The notes below the pieces were generated by a model. That model did not search any database. It was not told the origin of the DNA and worked only from the letters and a program-made list of their open reading frames with translations. The translations under genes were made by a program, and so were the position numbers. 64,000 bases of DNA from positions 93,062 to 157,061 of the forward strand of contig JACOYR010000001.1 in assembly GCA_016181765.1 (NCBI GenBank), written 5' to 3'. Shown here piece after piece: positions 1,773-11,526 of this stretch. Source of the DNA: Parcubacteria group bacterium (GTDB taxonomy: Bacteria > Patescibacteriota > Patescibacteriia > UBA2169). Each line of letters begins with the position of its first letter. Within the stretch, counting starts at the first letter, position 1.

Positions 1773-1970
1773 TCAAACTGGAATTGGCTTATGGCGCTCG
1801 TGCAATGTCTCAATATAAACTTCAATAGCTTCACGAATATTCACCTTTGCCTGCTCCAAGGTATCTCCCTCTGAAATGCATCCAGGAAGGTCCGGGACTT
1901 CCACGGTATACCCGCCTTCTGTTTGAGACATACATACGGCTTCGTATCGTAATGATTTTATAGTATTCAT
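1773..1970 (-). CDS. HicB-like (UPF0150) antitoxin-domain protein, orphan
   Basis: The 65 aa ORF reads YTVEVPDLPGCISEGDTLEQAKVNIREAIEVY, which is characteristic of the HicB N-domain. No HicA partner is visible. The start overlaps the methyltransferase stop (ATGA). The region is low in GC. Confidence 0.55.
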   Translation of the reverse strand: MNTIKSLRYEAVCMSQTEGGYTVEVPDLPGCISEGDTLEQAKVNIREAIEVYIETLHERHKPIPV

Positions 1971-3151
1971 ATTCTAACGTTCGCGTATATCTGATGTTTT
2001 TCGGAGTATAGCGGAGCAAAATAGGGGTGGAGGCTTTTTTCTTTTTCCATTAAAAACAGGTACTCATGATGTTTGCTGTCGCTATGTATCCATTCATTTG
2101 TCCAGCGCATGCCACCCATAACATTTACTTTATAGTTAATCTCAACCACATTCAGCAGCTTCCCTGATTCATGCATTAAATCACTTAATTCTTGCTTCGT
2201 TGCTCTTCCGCCAGAACTATATGAAAGAAGAATGTAGCGAGATTTAGTTTCTTGGATAAGTTTTTTTAAGGCTTCCATGGCGATAAAAAATCCTTCTTCG
2301 TTTTTTCTAAATTCTTCAAATACGGAAGCGGAGAGTAAATCTCTTGTGTCTACTCTGCGATTGACCTTCCCGAACAATTCCGGTTTATCGTTTTTGATAA
2401 TGGTAGTCCAAATATGATAATAAGAAGCATATCTAACCCTGCTGGGGGGCATTTTTTCATTATTTGATCCGTACGGCGGGTCAAAATACGCAAGATCAAA
2501 TTCATTTTTTGATATGGTGTCAAAAATGTCCCCGCGAATTATGCGATGTTGTTTGTTAGTTTTAAATCTTTTTGGCAATTTTAAGAATAAATCATTGTGC
2601 GATCTTGGAGACCATTTTGCCAAATATGACACATAGTGGCCGAGCGTGCTGTCAACGGAATCAAGGGCATAAATCAAGCTTGTCAGAATAACGCATTTGT
2701 CTTCCCACCCTAAATTGAGTTTATCTATTTCATCTCTGATGGCATCTAGTTTCCTGGTATTTTTAGCTTGGAACGGTTTTTTGCCTTCATCTAATTCCGC
2801 GCCATAGTGTTTTGTGTACCAACCATCATATCCTTTTAGATTGTTTAAATGATCTAAAATTTCTTGGTAATACTTATCTTCTTTTTCTGATTTTAAGTAG
2901 CATGTGCCAAAAACTTCAGACCAAGCTGAAATATCGCTGACAGTCGTATTGTACCCAAGTTGAGCAAGCGCTTGTGACACTCTGGTCGTTCCGCTAAATC
3001 CATCAAGTATATTTTTTACTCCGTCAAGTTCGCTTAGAAGTTGGACAATATACGGCAATATTTTTAATTTTGACCCCGCATACTTAATCCCTTCTGTTTT
3101 GGGAACACTCAATTTTTTATTGCCGAAAATATCTATTTGCTGGCCGCTCAT
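1967..3151 (-). CDS. N6-adenine DNA methyltransferase, D12/Dam-like class, of a type II restriction-modification system
   Basis: The 394 aa ORF has an N-terminal FxGxG-like SAM-binding region (DGFSGTT) and the catalytic DPPY motif (FDPPYGS). It is ATGA-coupled to the upstream endonuclease gene. GC is about 38%, against more than 55% in flanking genes. Confidence 0.8.
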   Translation of the reverse strand: MSGQQIDIFGNKKLSVPKTEGIKYAGSKLKILPYIVQLLSELDGVKNILDGFSGTTRVSQALAQLGYNTTVSDISAWSEVFGTCYLKSEKEDKYYQEILDHLNNLKGYDGWYTKHYGAELDEGKKPFQAKNTRKLDAIRDEIDKLNLGWEDKCVILTSLIYALDSVDSTLGHYVSYLAKWSPRSHNDLFLKLPKRFKTNKQHRIIRGDIFDTISKNEFDLAYFDPPYGSNNEKMPPSRVRYASYYHIWTTIIKNDKPELFGKVNRRVDTRDLLSASVFEEFRKNEEGFFIAMEALKKLIQETKSRYILLSYSSGGRATKQELSDLMHESGKLLNVVEINYKVNVMGGMRWTNEWIHSDSKHHEYLFLMEKEKSLHPYFAPLYSEKHQIYANVRI

Positions 3152-6629: not shown

Positions 6630-6659
6630 TTGTCAAATACCTCTTGTAAATGCTAATAT
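6630..6659 (+). promoter_or_regulatory. Putative sigma70-like promoter giving a near-leaderless transcript for the GT2 gene: TTGTCA-N18-TAATAT
   Basis: TTGTCA at 6630-6635 and TAATAT at 6654-6659 lie in an AT-rich divergent intergenic region. The likely start codon at 6668 is only about 8 nt downstream. Confidence 0.3.
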
Positions 6660-6667
6660 GGAATCAC

Positions 6668-7540
6668 ATGAAACAACCATATATCTCAATTATTGTGCTC
6701 CACTACAAAAACCTTGATGATACCCAGGCCTGCTTAAAGTCGTTGGAAAAAATTGACTACCCGAAATACTCAGTGATTGTGGTGAATAATGACGCGGTTG
6801 AACACGGGCGAACGCTGAAAAACGAATTTTCGGACATTACACTGATTCAAAACCAGAGCAATGCGGGGTTTGCCGAAGGCAATAATGTCGGTATTCGGCA
6901 CGCACTTGCAGACAGCCGAACAGACGCGGTGTTGATATTGAACAATGACACCGAAGTTGAATCGGATTTTTTGTCTGAAATGGCACATGCCAAGGGCGAT
7001 ATGATAGCCGCTTGCATGATGCAGTATGACAAACGCGATACAGTGGATAATCTCGGCGTGGTCATGATGAAGAGCGGCCTGCCCTTCAACCGGCGTGATG
7101 AACATCAGAAGCTCTTCTGCCCGTCTGCCGGATGCGCACTCTACTCTCGGAAACTTTTGGAAACAGTCGCAATGTATGTCCCCTCCTTTACTAAGGAGGG
7201 GGTGAGGAAGTGGTATTTTGACCCGCTCTACTTTGCGTACGCCGAAGACCTGGATCTCGGCTTCCGGGCGCGGCTACAAGGCTTTGAGCCTGGGTATGCA
7301 AAAGGCGCAATAGTATACCACAAAGGCTCCGCATCAACCTCAAAACTTTCCGACCTTGCGGTGTACCATACCTACCGGAATCTAATATGGACGCAATACA
7401 AAAACTATCCCTTGACGTTATGCCTGCGAAACCTATTCTGGCTCATCCTGGGCTGGAAACTCATCTTCTTAGGCTATGTGTTCAAAGGCAGGCCCCTGGT
7501 GATGATAAGAGCCGTATTTGACGGCATACGCGGACCCTAA
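6668..7540 (+). CDS. Family 2 glycosyltransferase (GT-A fold)
   Basis: The ORF begins MKQPYISIIVLHYKN and has a DxD-like VNNDAVE region plus a LILNNDTE motif. The ORF-track start at 6650 is likely an N-terminal over-extension. The gene contains in-frame palindromic element A at 7180-7214. Confidence 0.8.
   Translation: MKQPYISIIVLHYKNLDDTQACLKSLEKIDYPKYSVIVVNNDAVEHGRTLKNEFSDITLIQNQSNAGFAEGNNVGIRHALADSRTDAVLILNNDTEVESDFLSEMAHAKGDMIAACMMQYDKRDTVDNLGVVMMKSGLPFNRRDEHQKLFCPSAGCALYSRKLLETVAMYVPSFTKEGVRKWYFDPLYFAYAEDLDLGFRARLQGFEPGYAKGAIVYHKGSASTSKLSDLAVYHTYRNLIWTQYKNYPLTLCLRNLFWLILGWKLIFLGYVFKGRPLVMIRAVFDGIRGP
7180..7214. repeat. In-frame SD/anti-SD palindromic element, copy A
   Basis: CCCCTCCTT-TACT-AAGGAGGGGG followed by TGAGGAAGTGGT. 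It lies inside the GT2 coding sequence and encodes PSFTKEGV. Confidence 0.8.
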
Positions 7541-7551
7541 AAATCTCCTAT

Positions 7552-7596
7552 AAAAAAATGAGCTTCCCTCTCTCTCCGGAGAAGAAAGCTCACTCA
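7552..7596 (-). terminator. Intrinsic terminator hairpin for the minus-strand HNH-like gene
   Basis: TGAGCTTCCCTCTCTCTCCGGAGAAGAAAGCTCA forms an imperfect stem-loop at 7559-7593. It is followed on the minus strand by a run of seven T (7552-7558), directly after the stop at 7597. Confidence 0.45.
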
Positions 7597-8052
7597 TCAT
7601 GCGGCAAGGACAAGCGCCTCTTGCCTCACGAGCAGAAACGACCAGCGCGGATCTAGGAACCACGCGTTGATGGCATCAACGGCTGTTTGGGGATCCGTCC
7701 CCGGAGGGAACAGCTCAAACCACGCGTCCAGGTTCGGCGGCTGCTTGAGCCGGAACCGCTTGTGCCGGATCGGCTCGGGGTCCCTGCGTCGTCCCCAGAG
7801 CAGGACCGGCCTGATCCGGGAACCTTCCAGCGGGTACTTGCGGGTCAGGTCATCCGCAATCCAGTCCCCCCGCCAGGCAAACACCATGTGGTGCCAGAGC
7901 TGGTGCGGCGTTTCCGGGATCAGCTCCGCATTGCCTTTCGGCCACCGGCGTGTGCCCCCCAAACAGCTCGGAAAGCGGTGGTGTACAGTAATGCGGTCCC
8001 CCCTCCACCGGTCCATGAAACCGGCTAGACTGCCGTTCACCCCAATATCCAA
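7597..8052 (-). CDS. Putative HNH-family endonuclease (151 aa)
   Basis: VHHRFPSCLGGTRRWPKGNAELIPETPHQLWHH matches the HH-x3-S-x-GG...N...H...H architecture of the HNH motif. The segment is GC-rich. Antisense ORFs here are Arg/Pro-rich shadows. Confidence 0.45.
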   Translation of the reverse strand: MDIGVNGSLAGFMDRWRGDRITVHHRFPSCLGGTRRWPKGNAELIPETPHQLWHHMVFAWRGDWIADDLTRKYPLEGSRIRPVLLWGRRRDPEPIRHKRFRLKQPPNLDAWFELFPPGTDPQTAVDAINAWFLDPRWSFLLVRQEALVLAA

Positions 8053-8117
8053 ACGTCAAGGAACATCCCTGCCCTCCTCTCATTTTGTTAGGCCCTATTG
8101 CCTGGTTTCATTATACC

Positions 8118-8273
8118 CTAATTGCGGCTGACTCTCCATATGTGCACATCCCCCACGCGCCGCGGCTCGCCCAGGAGCTCAACTGTCTTATCTAAAACAA
8201 CATCATTGATCCACTTGTTCTCGGTCATGTAGTAGCATACATCTGCTCCGGTAATGCGGAATGCGGCGCTCAT
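8118..8273 (-). CDS. Possible 51 aa small protein, translationally coupled
   Basis: An ATG at 8273-8271 overlaps the TGA of the upstream 706 aa membrane-protein gene (ATGA). MSAAFRITGADVCYYMTENKWINDVVLDKTVELLGEP... is protein-like but has no known family. Confidence 0.25.
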   Translation of the reverse strand: MSAAFRITGADVCYYMTENKWINDVVLDKTVELLGEPRRVGDVHIWRVSRN

Positions 8274-10390
8274 CCAGGCTTGGGACGGGGATTTTGACAT
8301 GCCGCTTCCAAGCCAAGCAAGGGCCAGGTGTTGGCGATGACGCAATAAGGTTCCCCGTCTTTTTGATGCTCTTGCCATACCAGGCGGCTCGCTTCCAGTT
8401 CATCTGTAGTTACGACTTCAAGCTTGGGGCCCGAGGCATAGGTTGATGTTGCCCCGAATGCGAGCAGAAATGTGATGGCAAGTATTTTTTTACGCATGGG
8501 AATCTTGATGCGCTTCTCGTGGAGGAAGAGCCATATCCCCCACCCCAAAAACAGAATCATAAAAAACACAATGGTCTCGTTCAGCCTGCGCGCGAGGATG
8601 TGCACGCCCTCGGTGAATGACCAGGAAATGAAGTACGCGCCGAGCGTTACTCCGAACAGGACCGCAAGCAGGACAATAACGCGCCGCTCGCGCTTCCGCC
8701 TCAAAAGGCGATACAGCGCCCAACAAATCACAAGCCACGCGCCCATGGAGACAATGAACGGCACGATGCGGTACGAGAACAAGGGCAGCCGCGACAGTGA
8801 TTCTTTACTCTGGTTATATAAAAAGTTCCCCTGGTCAATGAAATCCGGGGGCACCACGATTCCGATGAACCCGGACAGCCTGCCGAACGCGTCAGCCAGA
8901 GCGTCAATGACGCCTGGAATTGAGAGAGAGCCTGGCGCATAACTGGAAAGGCCCTGGAAGAGCTCCAAAAACGGAATCGCGAACACGGACGCGATGACGA
9001 GCAAACCGAAAATGGTTTTGTCGCGCAGCGCTATCCTGCGGTCGCTGAATCCGAACTTGAGCTTGAGCTTGTACCAGTGGTTGCGCTCCATAAAGAGCTT
9101 CCGCCAGCCGACAGCGAGAATGCCGAACAGGGCAAGCGCAAAAAAATTCAGGATGTACCCCCAGTAAAATGCGAACGAGAAGAAGCTTGCCGCAACAAGC
9201 GTGGAGCGCCTGCCCTCTGTTGCGTAGTGCGCCCACACGAGCAACACGAAAAAGAAAAACAAGTGCCCGAACGAAACCGGAATCGTGATGGCCCCTTCTG
9301 ACTGGAAGGTGTAGAAAAGCGTTGGCAAAAACGCGAACAGCAAACCTATTCGTTCCCCCTCCTTACCAAGGAGGGGGCCGGGGGGTGGTCCTTCATCAAA
9401 AACCAGCCGCCCGAACCAGTATAAAATGAGCGGCAGAAACAGCGACCAGAGCGCAAAAACAAGCAGCAGATCAACCCAGAACAAGCTCACCCCAAGGGAT
9501 TCGCTCAAAAAAATTGTTGATGCCCACTGTGATGCGTATGATGTTTTGTTGCCCGCAACCAGGGCCTCGGGCACTGCAATGGGCCCAAAGTAAATATTTG
9601 ACCGTTCTTCGCCCCAGATGCTCGGGGTGTAGATGTTCCCCTCCTGGAGCCACTCTTCCGCGCCCAGGTGCCGCCACTTGTCCCCTCCGAATCCGGTTTC
9701 ATACACCACCGGCAGATACGCGTGCGAGAGGTACGAGAATAGGATAATGAGGCCGAGCACGAGCTTGACGGAGCCGCGGGTAAACACCATATACCCAAGC
9801 AGAAACACGAGCCCGAAAAACAGCATCAATGTGAATGATGAGAGCGCGGCCCACGGGGAGAGGATGTACACCCCGGTGCGGCTGTGGAAGATGAAAAACG
9901 CGAACAGCGCCGAGAGGGCTATAAAACCAATGACCTGCCAGTCCCGTGTCATTGCGAGCGAACGTACTCGTGAGCGAAGCAATCTTAACGTCGCGCCTAA
10001 GAATGTCCTTTTGACACCAAGCCATCGTCGCGTTGATAGGATTGCTTCGCCTCGCTGTCGCTCGGCTCGCAATGACAAGAGCACTCCAACCAGCCCGACA
10101 ACAAGCAACGCCGCGGCAACCGCAATCCTATCGTACTTCCACACCACCACCGGAATGCCAATGGCAAACGCGGAGAGATAGAATCCAGTGAGAAATCCAA
10201 ACACTCGCGCCCATGCGGCGCTAAACGGAAGCACGCGTTCCAGAACCGCGCCCCAGGCCATGGCGTTCACGCCATAGTACAGGATCAAGCCAAAAACGCC
10301 GACCAAAAACGACTGGCCCCCGGTCCAGTTTCCGTACAAGAGCGCAACTGACGCTATGAGGAGCAGTGTGCGTGTTATGATCCGCCACAT
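8270..10390 (-). CDS. Large polytopic integral membrane protein (706 aa), possibly a GT-C-like glycosyltransferase or polymerase
   Basis: At least 12 hydrophobic helices with a hydrophilic C-terminal domain. It is embedded among glycosyltransferase genes. It contains in-frame palindromic element B (9355-9390, encoding GPPPGPLLGKEGE). Confidence 0.65.
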   Translation of the reverse strand: MWRIITRTLLLIASVALLYGNWTGGQSFLVGVFGLILYYGVNAMAWGAVLERVLPFSAAWARVFGFLTGFYLSAFAIGIPVVVWKYDRIAVAAALLVVGLVGVLLSLRAERQRGEAILSTRRWLGVKRTFLGATLRLLRSRVRSLAMTRDWQVIGFIALSALFAFFIFHSRTGVYILSPWAALSSFTLMLFFGLVFLLGYMVFTRGSVKLVLGLIILFSYLSHAYLPVVYETGFGGDKWRHLGAEEWLQEGNIYTPSIWGEERSNIYFGPIAVPEALVAGNKTSYASQWASTIFLSESLGVSLFWVDLLLVFALWSLFLPLILYWFGRLVFDEGPPPGPLLGKEGERIGLLFAFLPTLFYTFQSEGAITIPVSFGHLFFFFVLLVWAHYATEGRRSTLVAASFFSFAFYWGYILNFFALALFGILAVGWRKLFMERNHWYKLKLKFGFSDRRIALRDKTIFGLLVIASVFAIPFLELFQGLSSYAPGSLSIPGVIDALADAFGRLSGFIGIVVPPDFIDQGNFLYNQSKESLSRLPLFSYRIVPFIVSMGAWLVICWALYRLLRRKRERRVIVLLAVLFGVTLGAYFISWSFTEGVHILARRLNETIVFFMILFLGWGIWLFLHEKRIKIPMRKKILAITFLLAFGATSTYASGPKLEVVTTDELEASRLVWQEHQKDGEPYCVIANTWPLLGLEAACQNPRPKPG
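9355..9390. repeat. In-frame SD/anti-SD palindromic element, copy B
   Basis: CCCCCTCCTT-ACC-AAGGAGGGGG followed by CCGGGGGGTGGTC. It lies inside the 706 aa membrane-protein gene and encodes GPPPGPLLGKEGE on the minus strand. Confidence 0.8.
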
Positions 10391-11526
10391 AGTGCGAGCA
10401 ATTGTTTTCCAATACTATCCCAATTATACCTCTTTTCCGCAAGTGCGCGAGCAGCTTTCCCCATGACTGCGCGCTTTGACGGATCAGCAAGCACAGTGCT
10501 GATTGCGGCAGCGAGCGCTTGTTCGTCCTTAATAGGCACTGTGATGCCGGACACGCCATCCTCGTACACGGACCGGACCCCGGGTAAATTTGACGTAATC
10601 ACCGGCGTGCCAGCTGCCATGGATTCAGCCAAAACAATCCCGAATGATTCTGACTGGTCAATGGACGGCAAAACCGTGACTGCCGCGGTTTGATACAGCT
10701 TCATCAATTCCTCATCTGATACGCCGCCTGCAAAGTTGACGCGGCCACTGACACCCAACTCTTGGGCTAATTTTTTGTACTGTTCCGCCAACTCCCCTTT
10801 TCCGGCTATGACAAGCCTTACTTCCCCCCTTGTATTCAGGAGGGGACCAAGGGGGGGTCTCGCAACCAACGAAAATGCCTTAATCAGGTATTCCACGCCC
10901 TTAAAATAGTGCGCCCTATCCAAACCCCCCACGAACAAAACTATATTCTCCCGCGGCGCGGGATTGAACGTAAACCGCTCAAAATCAACGCCAATGGGAA
11001 TGACGCGGAATTTTTTGTCATCTGACCAAAAGCGCCGCAAATCCGAATGCCGCGCATAATCTTCACTTGATGCGAGCACCGCATCTGCGGCGTTGATGAT
11101 CCGCGGCAGAAAAAATGCCGTGGCATACCAAAATACTAAGCCTTTCAACCCCGAACCTACCACATCCATGTTGTAGTTGAGGATAAGCTTGAACCCATAT
11201 TTCTTTTTTGCGCGATACACGGCCCGCATGCCCCCGAAAAACGGGTACTGCAAAATGACTGCATCAAAACCGCGCAGTTGACGTTCCAACTGCGGCACCC
11301 AAGCCGCGTTCCCGTATTTGAGCTTAGGCTCAAGCAGAATCACCTCCCCCTCCTTTATTAAGGAGGGGGTCGGGGGGTGGTCAGGTGCGGGGCTATATCC
11401 GTAATTCGGCGTAAACACGGACACACTCTGCCCTTGGCCCGCCAAAAGCCGCGCATGATGGTACGCGATGGTCCCCATGCCTCCGCGGTACGGAGGAAAT
11501 ACCGGCGTGACAACGGCTATCTTCAT
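10375..11526 (-). CDS. Family 4 glycosyltransferase (GT-B fold)
   Basis: The ORF has the ESFGIVLAESMAAGTPVI nucleotide-sugar-binding motif. It carries two in-frame palindromic elements: C (10824-10860) in the interdomain linker and D (11346-11385) near the N-terminus. Confidence 0.85.
   Translation of the reverse strand: MKIAVVTPVFPPYRGGMGTIAYHHARLLAGQGQSVSVFTPNYGYSPAPDHPPTPSLIKEGEVILLEPKLKYGNAAWVPQLERQLRGFDAVILQYPFFGGMRAVYRAKKKYGFKLILNYNMDVVGSGLKGLVFWYATAFFLPRIINAADAVLASSEDYARHSDLRRFWSDDKKFRVIPIGVDFERFTFNPAPRENIVLFVGGLDRAHYFKGVEYLIKAFSLVARPPLGPLLNTRGEVRLVIAGKGELAEQYKKLAQELGVSGRVNFAGGVSDEELMKLYQTAAVTVLPSIDQSESFGIVLAESMAAGTPVITSNLPGVRSVYEDGVSGITVPIKDEQALAAAISTVLADPSKRAVMGKAARALAEKRYNWDSIGKQLLALCGGS
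10824..10860. repeat. In-frame palindromic element, degenerate copy C
   Basis: CCCCCCTTGTATTCAGGAGGGGACCAAGGGGGGGTCT lies inside GT4 and encodes RPPLGPLLNTRGEV. Confidence 0.6.
11346..11385. repeat. In-frame SD/anti-SD palindromic element, copy D
   Basis: CCCCCTCCTT-TATT-AAGGAGGGGG followed by TCGGGGGGTGGTCAGG. It lies inside GT4 and encodes PDHPPTPSLIKEGEV. Confidence 0.8.

Follow-up and report, generated by a model that had tools for sequence, protein, structure and literature searches.

The 64,000-nucleotide stretch of DNA analysed here (the window) comes from a Parcubacteria group bacterium (assembly GCA_016181765.1, contig JACOYR010000001.1) and carries four short, G-rich repeats inside three genes. 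These genes encode a family 2 glycosyltransferase (GT2; 6650..7540, + strand, 296 aa, PF00535), which hosts copy 1, a polytopic membrane protein without a Pfam match (8270..10390, - strand, 706 aa), which hosts copy 2, and a family 4 glycosyltransferase (GT4; 10375..11526, - strand, 383 aa), which hosts copies 3 and 4. The membrane-protein gene is a conserved neighbour of the GT4 gene in Patescibacteria. All four copies lie within intact open reading frames (ORFs) and keep the frame, as an earlier note on this DNA had described. We consider it probable that they all represent one kind of DNA repeat, able to form an intrastrand triplex of the class II purine motif and known as BoxC, PIT or TM elements.

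The G-rich strand of every copy is the + strand of the window. Copy 1 (7180..7215), a decayed class II motif, consists of the pyrimidine arm CCCCTCCTT (7180-7188), the loop TACT, the purine arm AAGGAGGGG (7193-7201), the loop GTGAG and the third arm GAAGTGGTA (7207-7215). Its hairpin of 9 bp is perfect, its tail is decayed, with seven of nine triads, and the encoded peptide is PSFTKEGVRKW. Copies 2 (9355..9389) and 4 (11346..11381) are intact class II motifs with a perfect 10-bp hairpin and nine of nine triads each, and are distinguishable by their loops only: copy 2 reads CCCCCTCCT, TACCA, AGGAGGGGG, CCG, GGGGGTGGT and encodes GPPPGPLLGKEG, while copy 4 reads CCCCCTCCT, TTATTA, AGGAGGGGG, TCG, GGGGGTGGT and encodes DHPPTPSLIKEG. 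Copy 3 (10822..10858) is a degenerate poly-C/poly-G variant made up of TTCCCCCCT, TGTATTC, AGGAGGGGA, CCA and AGGGGGGGT, with two mismatches, and encodes RPPLGPLLNTRGE. Within the GT4 gene, copy 4 occupies an N-terminal-domain loop between strands 2 and 3, and copy 3 the loop preceding the first strand of the C-terminal domain. In the GT2 gene, the G-rich strand is sense; for the other three copies, it is the C-rich strand. The elements in the window are 35-37 bp long, and the 36-nt G-strand oligonucleotide sequence of the element is CCCCCTCCTTACCAAGGAGGGGGCCGGGGGGTGGTC. Perfect hairpins of the form CCCC(C)TCCTT-N3-4-AAGGAGGGG(G) begin at 7180, 9355 and 11346. Three of the four hairpin copies described earlier are strong (7180-7215, 9355-9389 and 11346-11381), and the fourth (10822-10858) proved to be degenerate and to come from another, poly-C/poly-G, variant.

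A class II intrastrand triplex, as defined by Holder et al. (2015, Nucleic Acids Research; PMC4666352), consists of a 5' pyrimidine domain, a purine domain and a 3' reverse-Hoogsteen domain. The ITxF definition used there allows stems of 6-15 nt, loops of 1-6 nt and C:G·G, T:A·T or T:A·A triads with at most one mismatch (PMC4666352). We wrote a scanner for class II triplexes to these rules, and compared the window with 20 local shuffles. Exactly four matches were obtained in the window, all with the G strand on +, and no shuffle gave more than one. The block order of the class II motif is present in all four elements, with 9-nt stems, a first loop of 4-7 nt and a second loop of 3-5 nt; the 7-nt first loop of copy 3 lies slightly above the published maximum of 6 nt. 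The copies at 7180-7215 and 10822-10858 are decayed members. The core CCCTCCTTN4AAGGAGGG had no match in 100 dinucleotide shuffles, and no further copies of the core pattern were found elsewhere in the 64 kb. An assembly artefact, which the earlier note had considered, was ruled out by an independent Logan assembly of the same organism (contig L001), in which 6.2 kb holding three of the elements match at 100% identity, showing that the elements are real. Hairpin energies were predicted at -9 to -14 kcal/mol as DNA by nearest-neighbour folding, which does not model triplexes. Rfam 15 covariance models (gathering score) gave no match in the window and none at the elements of 18 loci from many phyla, and scans for tRNA and tmRNA genes returned nothing at the elements.

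The motif was first spotted in Escherichia coli as BoxC and later named PIT elements, with earlier work by Hoyne/Maher 2000 cited in the same study (PMC4666352). The E. coli (TMECO) consensus is CCCTCNCCC-N3-6-GGGNGAGGG-N3-GGGNGAGGG, and its isolated strand forms a triplex in vitro by circular dichroism (CD) and nuclear magnetic resonance (NMR) (PMC4666352). The TMECO pattern had no match in the 64-kb window, where the stem is CCCCCTCCT/AGGAGGGGG and not CCCTCNCCC. It literally matches the GT4 site-1 elements of L002/L003, whose GT4 is 75% identical in amino acid sequence to that of the window, and of L005/L006. The window copies are thus a sister sequence variant in the same structural family, and not TMECO itself. 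They share with BoxC/PIT/TM elements the three-block class II architecture, the triad rule, a length of ~35 nt, a G/C-rich composition, variable loops combined with conserved stems, frequent inverted pairs and occurrence in many bacterial groups. The E. coli motif, however, is always intergenic and is not associated with known mobile elements (PMC4666352), whereas the elements described here occur in-frame in genes, show insertion polymorphism and recurrent sites, and have copies in viral contigs. The element, which had been thought to be undescribed, thus belongs to a published family of repeats.

We scanned one genome per species for CCCCTCCTT-N3-5-AAGGAGGGG and obtained at least 120 stretches, with hairpin matches listed from Bacteroidota, Acidobacteriota, Nitrospirota, Patescibacteria, Chlamydiota, Thiomargarita and others. 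Among the matches listed, 119 of 143 usable copies had GGGG[T/A]GGT within 45 nt of the hairpin, on one or both sides, compared to 0.9% of random windows. Hairpin and tail therefore constitute one coherent element of many phyla. The same loci contained many hairpins with other all-pyrimidine/all-purine stems, and in every variant the tail was the mirror of the purine arm, with G retained and A changed to T or A. Thus the purine arm AAGGAGGGG is accompanied by the tail GGGGTGGTT, GGGAGAGGG by GGGTGAGGG, AAGGGGAGG by GGTGGGGTA, AAGAGAGGG by GGGTGAGTT, and GAGGGGAGGG by GGGTGGGGTG. Covariation was measured on 104 hairpins outside the searched variant, representing 29 distinct cores. A perfect 8/8 mirror third arm was present within 30 nt in 85 of them, while swapping the arms between variants gave a mean of 6.3 and a maximum of 13. 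For asymmetric cores, there were 82 mirror matches as against 28 direct-repeat matches. Watson-Crick pairing of the tail is excluded by geometry, since the tail is a mirror and not an inverted repeat; homopolymer variants such as copy 3 are the exception. An antiparallel (reverse-Hoogsteen) purine-motif triple helix is built from G·G:C, T·A:T and A·A:T triads. The G-rich tail, earlier taken as a mere conserved extension of the hairpin, is the mirror-image third strand of the triplex motif.

Inverted pairs and tandem arrays of the element occur. A metagenome-assembled genome of Thiomargarita contains a head-to-tail tandem array of the triplex element with a period of 41 bp (L107, 7128-7312; CCCCTCCTTACCAAGGAGGGGTTGGGGGTGGTTAAGTTCCT), and several Thiomargarita and Marithrix contigs hold many copies each. 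In some copies, at many loci (among them L102 2048, L123 4471, L063 5670 and L089 1405), the second loop, between the purine arm and the third arm, is enlarged to a small G+C hairpin of its own whose loop is GNRA- or UUCG-like, as in tggcagccgcttcggctgac; this composite form falls outside the published loop definition of 1-6 nt. The element was also found in 72 stretches of viral contigs (IMG/VR, L129-L200), with the third arm present in 82 of 89 copies, and some viral contigs of 24-36 kb hold at least six copies (examples being IMGVR_UViG_3300044996_000692 and 3300038435_000085). The + strand of the window, which carries all four G strands, has a negative GC skew throughout. Placement of the G strand on the locally G-rich or C-rich strand showed a weak bias to the latter (G-rich to C-rich counts of 37:44 for genomes, 21:31 for metagenomes and 19:43 for viral contigs), where many copies share a contig and are not independent, and no conclusion on a replication-strand bias was drawn.

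Comparison with orthologues allowed insertions to be read directly. The membrane-protein site is empty in 22 of 30 orthologues, where the junction is F-(E/D)-(N/E) followed by E-R-L-G. Relative to the closest membrane-protein orthologue (L127, 85% amino acid identity), the window has exactly 36 bp more, GGACCACCCCCCGGCCCCCTCCTTGGTAAGGAGGGG, lying between two Glu codons and equal to the three 9-nt blocks plus loops. No target-site duplication was seen at this insertion in the comparison of the window with L127; the TTC on either side was considered and rejected as such a duplication, being just the two Glu codons, which are adjacent in the empty site too. In 201 distinct copies (L007-L320), position -1, directly upstream of the pyrimidine arm, is T in 88% of cases, and position -2 is C in 63%. 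The T at -1 belongs to the target at the sole clean insertion, which hints that the conserved flank T is a target preference rather than an element end. Both GT4 sites (1 and 2) are empty in L127 and in L128. The insertions resemble Rickettsia palindromic elements (RPEs) in behaviour, as had been proposed, and the lack of the insert in the closest orthologues contradicts an ancestral origin of the peptides.

Where orthologous sites are filled, they differ in what they carry. Elsewhere, they hold CCCTCTCCC/GGGAGAGGG or poly-C/poly-G stems. At the membrane-protein site, the C strand is sense in the window and the G strand is sense in L321, while L005 and L322 carry TMECO-type variants and L323 a decayed poly-C variant. 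Opposite orientations cannot share one event, and at least three independent insertions into the same membrane-protein loop must therefore have occurred. Opposite orientations at one site give unrelated peptides. At GT4 site 1, the site of copy 4, a TMECO-type variant is found in L002 and L005 and the window's own variant in L004, and the element variant and the host-gene phylogeny consequently disagree. The GT4 gene of L004 has a GC content of 38%, yet carries the GC-rich element AACCACCCCCTAACCCCCTCCTTAGTAAAGGATGGGG at site 1. At the site of copy 3, L002/L003 have an intact poly-C/poly-G copy with CCCCCC.../...GGGGGG(G) arms, and copy 3 descends from this variant. In the GT2 gene, the element is at the same position in the window and in the distant L005, where it is intact (PSFTKEGAGGW). 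The GT2 gene of L127 has no element at the window's position but has one elsewhere in the gene, and that of L128 has an unrelated long insert at the element site. Even orthologues of only 57-62% identity carry similar peptides (HPxTPSLxKxGE, PSFTKEG) at these sites. The local proliferation that the earlier note read from the clustering applies only in part: copies 2 and 4 look recent, the GT2 copy is shared with the distant L005, and the second GT4 copy (copy 3) with the close relatives L002/L003.

The sites of insertion are loops. In an alignment of 30 GT4 orthologues, length varies mainly in the loops at the two element sites. The window GT4 as modelled by AlphaFold2 (mean pLDDT 87.9, pTM 0.85) has pLDDT values below 50 solely at residues 49-54 and 228-231, both of which are in element-encoded loops, the first between strand 34-40 and strand 60-65 and the second between helix 211-218 and strand 237-241. 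The suggestion that the inserts occupy loops is borne out by this match with the only two low-confidence loops of the model. Among the genes that contain this element in other Patescibacteria are some with Pfam matches to MgsA/RarA, beta-CASP metallo-beta-lactamase, Lgt and TsaE. Family-wide, however, the elements avoid coding sequence and most copies are intergenic: the median spanning open frame is 96 codons at elements and 361 at random positions, and 16 of 54 complete metagenome copies are inside long open frames, compared to 67% of random positions. The intragenic copies are thus a minority that landed in-frame in permissive loops, and are probably neutral for the host proteins.

The membrane-protein gene of the window differs in one further respect from contig L001, which is otherwise 100% identical. 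At 8302/8303, 80 bp are missing (L001 5432-5511), and the resulting frameshift gives a protein of 706 instead of 784 aa. The deletion is flanked by just 2 bp of microhomology (GG), and represents a variant of the strain or else a polymorphism within the population.

Any account of these elements starts from what was observed directly, namely the three-block architecture, the three-way covariation, the insertion polymorphism, the location in loops and the cross-phylum distribution. The G-rich strand is organised as a pyrimidine arm of ~9 nt, a loop of 3-6 nt, the complementary purine arm, a loop of ~3 nt and a G/T arm, the last of which mirrors the purine arm with G facing G and T or A facing A. 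We propose that, whenever replication, repair or transcription exposes this strand as a single strand, its first two arms would pair as a hairpin, onto whose purine arm the third arm could fold in antiparallel orientation via the reverse-Hoogsteen triads named above. Such a triplex would form in vivo, and the machinery that copies or inserts the element would need the fold. A single-strand-specific HUH-type enzyme is one candidate for the spread, as enzymes of this type insert beside a short motif and leave no target duplication. The elements would be small non-autonomous insertions of 33-36 bp without target-site duplication. In the gene-dense Patescibacteria, the survivors would be in-frame, stop-free copies in permissive surface loops, encoding Pro...Lys-Glu-Gly/Gly-rich peptides in either orientation, and the likeness to Shine-Dalgarno (SD) and anti-SD sequences would be a by-product of the G-rich polypurine arm. 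The effect on DNA is likely to be local instability, by analogy with that reported for the E. coli motifs. Our tentative suggestion, which we hold to be possible but well short of established, is that intrastrand triplex motifs are structure-defined mobile DNA of ~36 bp whose propagation requires the three-block fold, with precise insertion, preferentially 3' of (C/T)T and without duplication, and repeated colonisation of the same protein loops in Patescibacteria. A need for the triplex fold in propagation would explain the three-way covariation over dozens of stem variants, many phyla and phage contigs.

Several points weigh against reading the four elements as copies of a triplex-forming repeat. 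Just one insertion/empty pair is clean enough for defining the boundaries. The structure is not kept in every copy, since those at 7180-7215 and 10822-10858 each have two mismatches over nine positions and fail the strict triad rule. A purely random selfish element does not explain why copies concentrate in the GT4, membrane-protein and GT2 genes. We know of no mobilising enzyme for BoxC/PIT/TM elements, and neither a mobilising enzyme nor an HUH transposase was present among the window ORFs scanned for protein families (to ~41 kb). For the E. coli motif, no triplex was detected in vivo, no protection was seen in dimethyl sulfate (DMS) footprinting, and the duplex form prevailed in vitro (PMC4666352).

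The clustering gives reason to consider another explanation, in which the host would retain the elements as local mutators, or contingency loci, of its surface-glycan genes. Slippage, deletions and recombination, favoured by the triplex and by the G5-G7/C5-C6 runs, would then switch or diversify the glycosyltransferase and membrane-protein genes. The four copies lie within 4.2 kb, with none in the other 60 kb of the window (P ~1e-3), and copies are likewise enriched in this gene block of L005, L321, L322 and L323; a mutator role would explain this clustering. TM motifs have been associated with local genomic instability (PMC4666352). The frame-shifting 80-bp deletion separates the membrane-protein genes of two otherwise identical assemblies, and indel hot spots of the orthologues coincide with the element sites. 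The deletion, however, is ~1 kb away from the closest element, the homopolymer runs were not observed to vary in length, housekeeping genes of other Patescibacteria also carry elements, and much of the remaining window, as scanned to ~41 kb, is also devoted to glycan biosynthesis, yet is copy-free. We therefore regard host-kept mutators as unlikely, though deserving of some weight. Short-range spread, a high tolerance of the proteins for inserts or a mutator benefit in surface-glycan genes are all possible causes of the clustering.

A second alternative would make the elements hairpins similar to repetitive extragenic palindromic (REP) sequences and REPINs, or related to IS200/IS605, moved by an HUH transposase of the RAYT/TnpA type, with the third arm serving for recognition or as a guide and not as a triplex strand. 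Insertion 3' of a short motif, with no duplication, is the habit of IS200/IS605 elements, and the insertion without target-site duplication, the flank preference for T at -1 (88%) and C at -2 (63%) over 201 copies and the inverted pairs and tandem arrays described above would all fit such a mechanism. REPs bear a conserved GTAG on their 5' side and are specific to a lineage, where each is paired with a RAYT gene of its own. The elements here resemble REP/REPIN sequences as short, mostly extragenic, non-autonomous hairpin repeats of high copy number with frequent inverted doublets. In contrast, their flank is (C/T)T, the 5' GTAG is absent, the mirror third arm is present, and neither a RAYT nor any other HUH transposase was seen among the window ORFs scanned (to ~41 kb). 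The rule by which T or A faces A fits a reverse-Hoogsteen strand and not a Watson-Crick guide, and Holder et al. reported no association with mobile elements (PMC4666352). We regard a REP-like or IS200/IS605-like identity as improbable.

The earlier note had seen an SD/anti-SD core as the defining feature, and the elements might accordingly act on mRNA, through ribosome pausing, internal initiation or masking of SD sequences. The arms do spell CCTCCTT and AAGGAGG, and copy 4 has an in-frame GTG 5 nt past the GGAGG run. However, GGGAGAGGG or poly-G stems without an AGGAGG core stand at the same orthologous sites, and the copies differ in which strand is sense, the G strand for the one in the GT2 gene but the C strand for the three others. 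This model also gives no role to the covarying third arm, and purine-motif triplexes are said not to form in RNA (PMC4666352). Most members of the family are intergenic, 29 other stem variants come from many phyla, and Rfam has no match. A functional SD core is, on this evidence, very improbable. We regard the likeness to SD/anti-SD sequences as incidental, because the stem concerned is one among at least 30 polypurine stems of the family, other stems occupy the same sites, the strand varies and the third arm is unexplained at the RNA level. It is possible that individual copies affect translation, yet such effects neither define nor maintain the element.

Folding of the G-rich strand as a G-quadruplex instead of a triplex could be imagined, the G strand of copies 2 and 4 having at least four G runs (GG, G5, G6, GG), but leaves the complementary pyrimidine arm and the T/A-for-A mirror rule unexplained, and CD and NMR of the E. 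coli motif indicate a triplex (PMC4666352); we give it little credence. Least credible of all is the idea that the Pro/Gly-rich peptides are ancestral or selected linkers and the palindromes a side effect of codon choice, which the similar peptides at the same sites despite 57-62% identity might suggest, since the peptides are missing from the closest orthologues, where the empty sites already contradict it, the same DNA is mostly intergenic in unrelated phyla and occurs in viral contigs, opposite orientations at one site give unrelated peptides, the L004 element is a GC-rich island within a 38%-GC gene, and the loops are disordered in the GT4 model.

RPEs are ~100-150 bp long, restricted to Rickettsia and inserted in-frame in unrelated genes (PMC10969869). 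The elements described here share with them the in-frame placement of palindromic repeats in unrelated genes of a reduced genome, with a conserved peptide that is tolerated by the fold. This is a likeness of behaviour and not membership, since the present elements are 33-36 bp long, structure-defined and found in many phyla, and RPEs lack the triplex architecture. The SDR repeats of heterocystous cyanobacteria, 21-27 nt long, are said to have been described by Elhai et al. in 2008 (Genome Res) as mobile-looking and inserted into otherwise conserved sequence.

Other in-frame repeats were observed in the same genes. A second family lies at ~9945-10055 on the - strand, inside the membrane-protein gene, and consists of an 11-bp inverted repeat, GCGAAGCAATC ... 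GATTGCTTCGC, followed by TCGCTCGCAATGAC; it encodes ...LRLLRSRVRSLAMT. Its relatives (GAGGCGAAGCAATCC ... TCGCAATGAC; 'DDKIA(T/A)VxSTLPRND') are present in the membrane proteins of L322 and L005, the GT2 of L128 and the GT4 orthologue P0009. A third GT4 loop (alignment columns 165-174) has a recurrent short insert in P0021, P0027, P0035 and P0033 (LPARRSLGEVGK, WPVRRSLSEVGK) that is absent from the window GT4, and which may represent a further repeat family tolerant of coding sequence.

Beyond the three host genes, much of the scanned part of the window, between 13 and 41 kb, is a glycan-biosynthesis island. It encodes a UDP-glucose dehydrogenase, several epimerases/dehydratases, an O-antigen-ligase-like TPR protein, an S8 peptidase with FG-GAP repeats, a priming glycosylphosphotransferase, NeuC/NeuB/PseF-like proteins for nonulosonic acids and a WbuX-type amidotransferase, and no triplex elements were found in the genes of this island (13-41 kb). 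An RND efflux pair is located at 22-27 kb. On the - strand at 1967-3151, a gene for a D12-class N6-adenine DNA methyltransferase adjoins ORFs without a family match, and may be part of a restriction-modification locus or an orphan methylase locus.

Searches of the literature by sequence words, including AAGGAGGGG and GGGGTGGTT, returned unrelated papers only, and a search on in-frame palindromic repeats in the Candidate Phyla Radiation gave nothing relevant. Within the literature searched, the in-frame intragenic habit in Patescibacteria, the recurrent bidirectional insertion at identical loops, the breadth of the three-way covariation and the presence in viral contigs are possibly new, as is, within this analysis, insertion without target-site duplication.

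BoxC/PIT/TM elements have been known for decades and, to our knowledge, their origin, function and mode of spread have been unsettled since the 1990s. The E. coli copies are intergenic, which makes insertion events hard to read. Copies in Patescibacteria are inside conserved genes, and orthologue comparison therefore yields filled and empty sites that are exact to the base. The three-way covariation provides comparative evidence for a constraint on triple-helix geometry, which the in vivo experiments had been unable to reveal. For candidate-phyla bacteria, the inserts inflate and diversify the predicted proteins, and are open to misreading as functional linkers or regulatory SD sites. If the elements are indeed structure-defined mobile DNA, they would, at ~36 bp, be among the smallest mobile units known, and the in-frame copies would be the first clean natural record of single BoxC/PIT-type insertion events.

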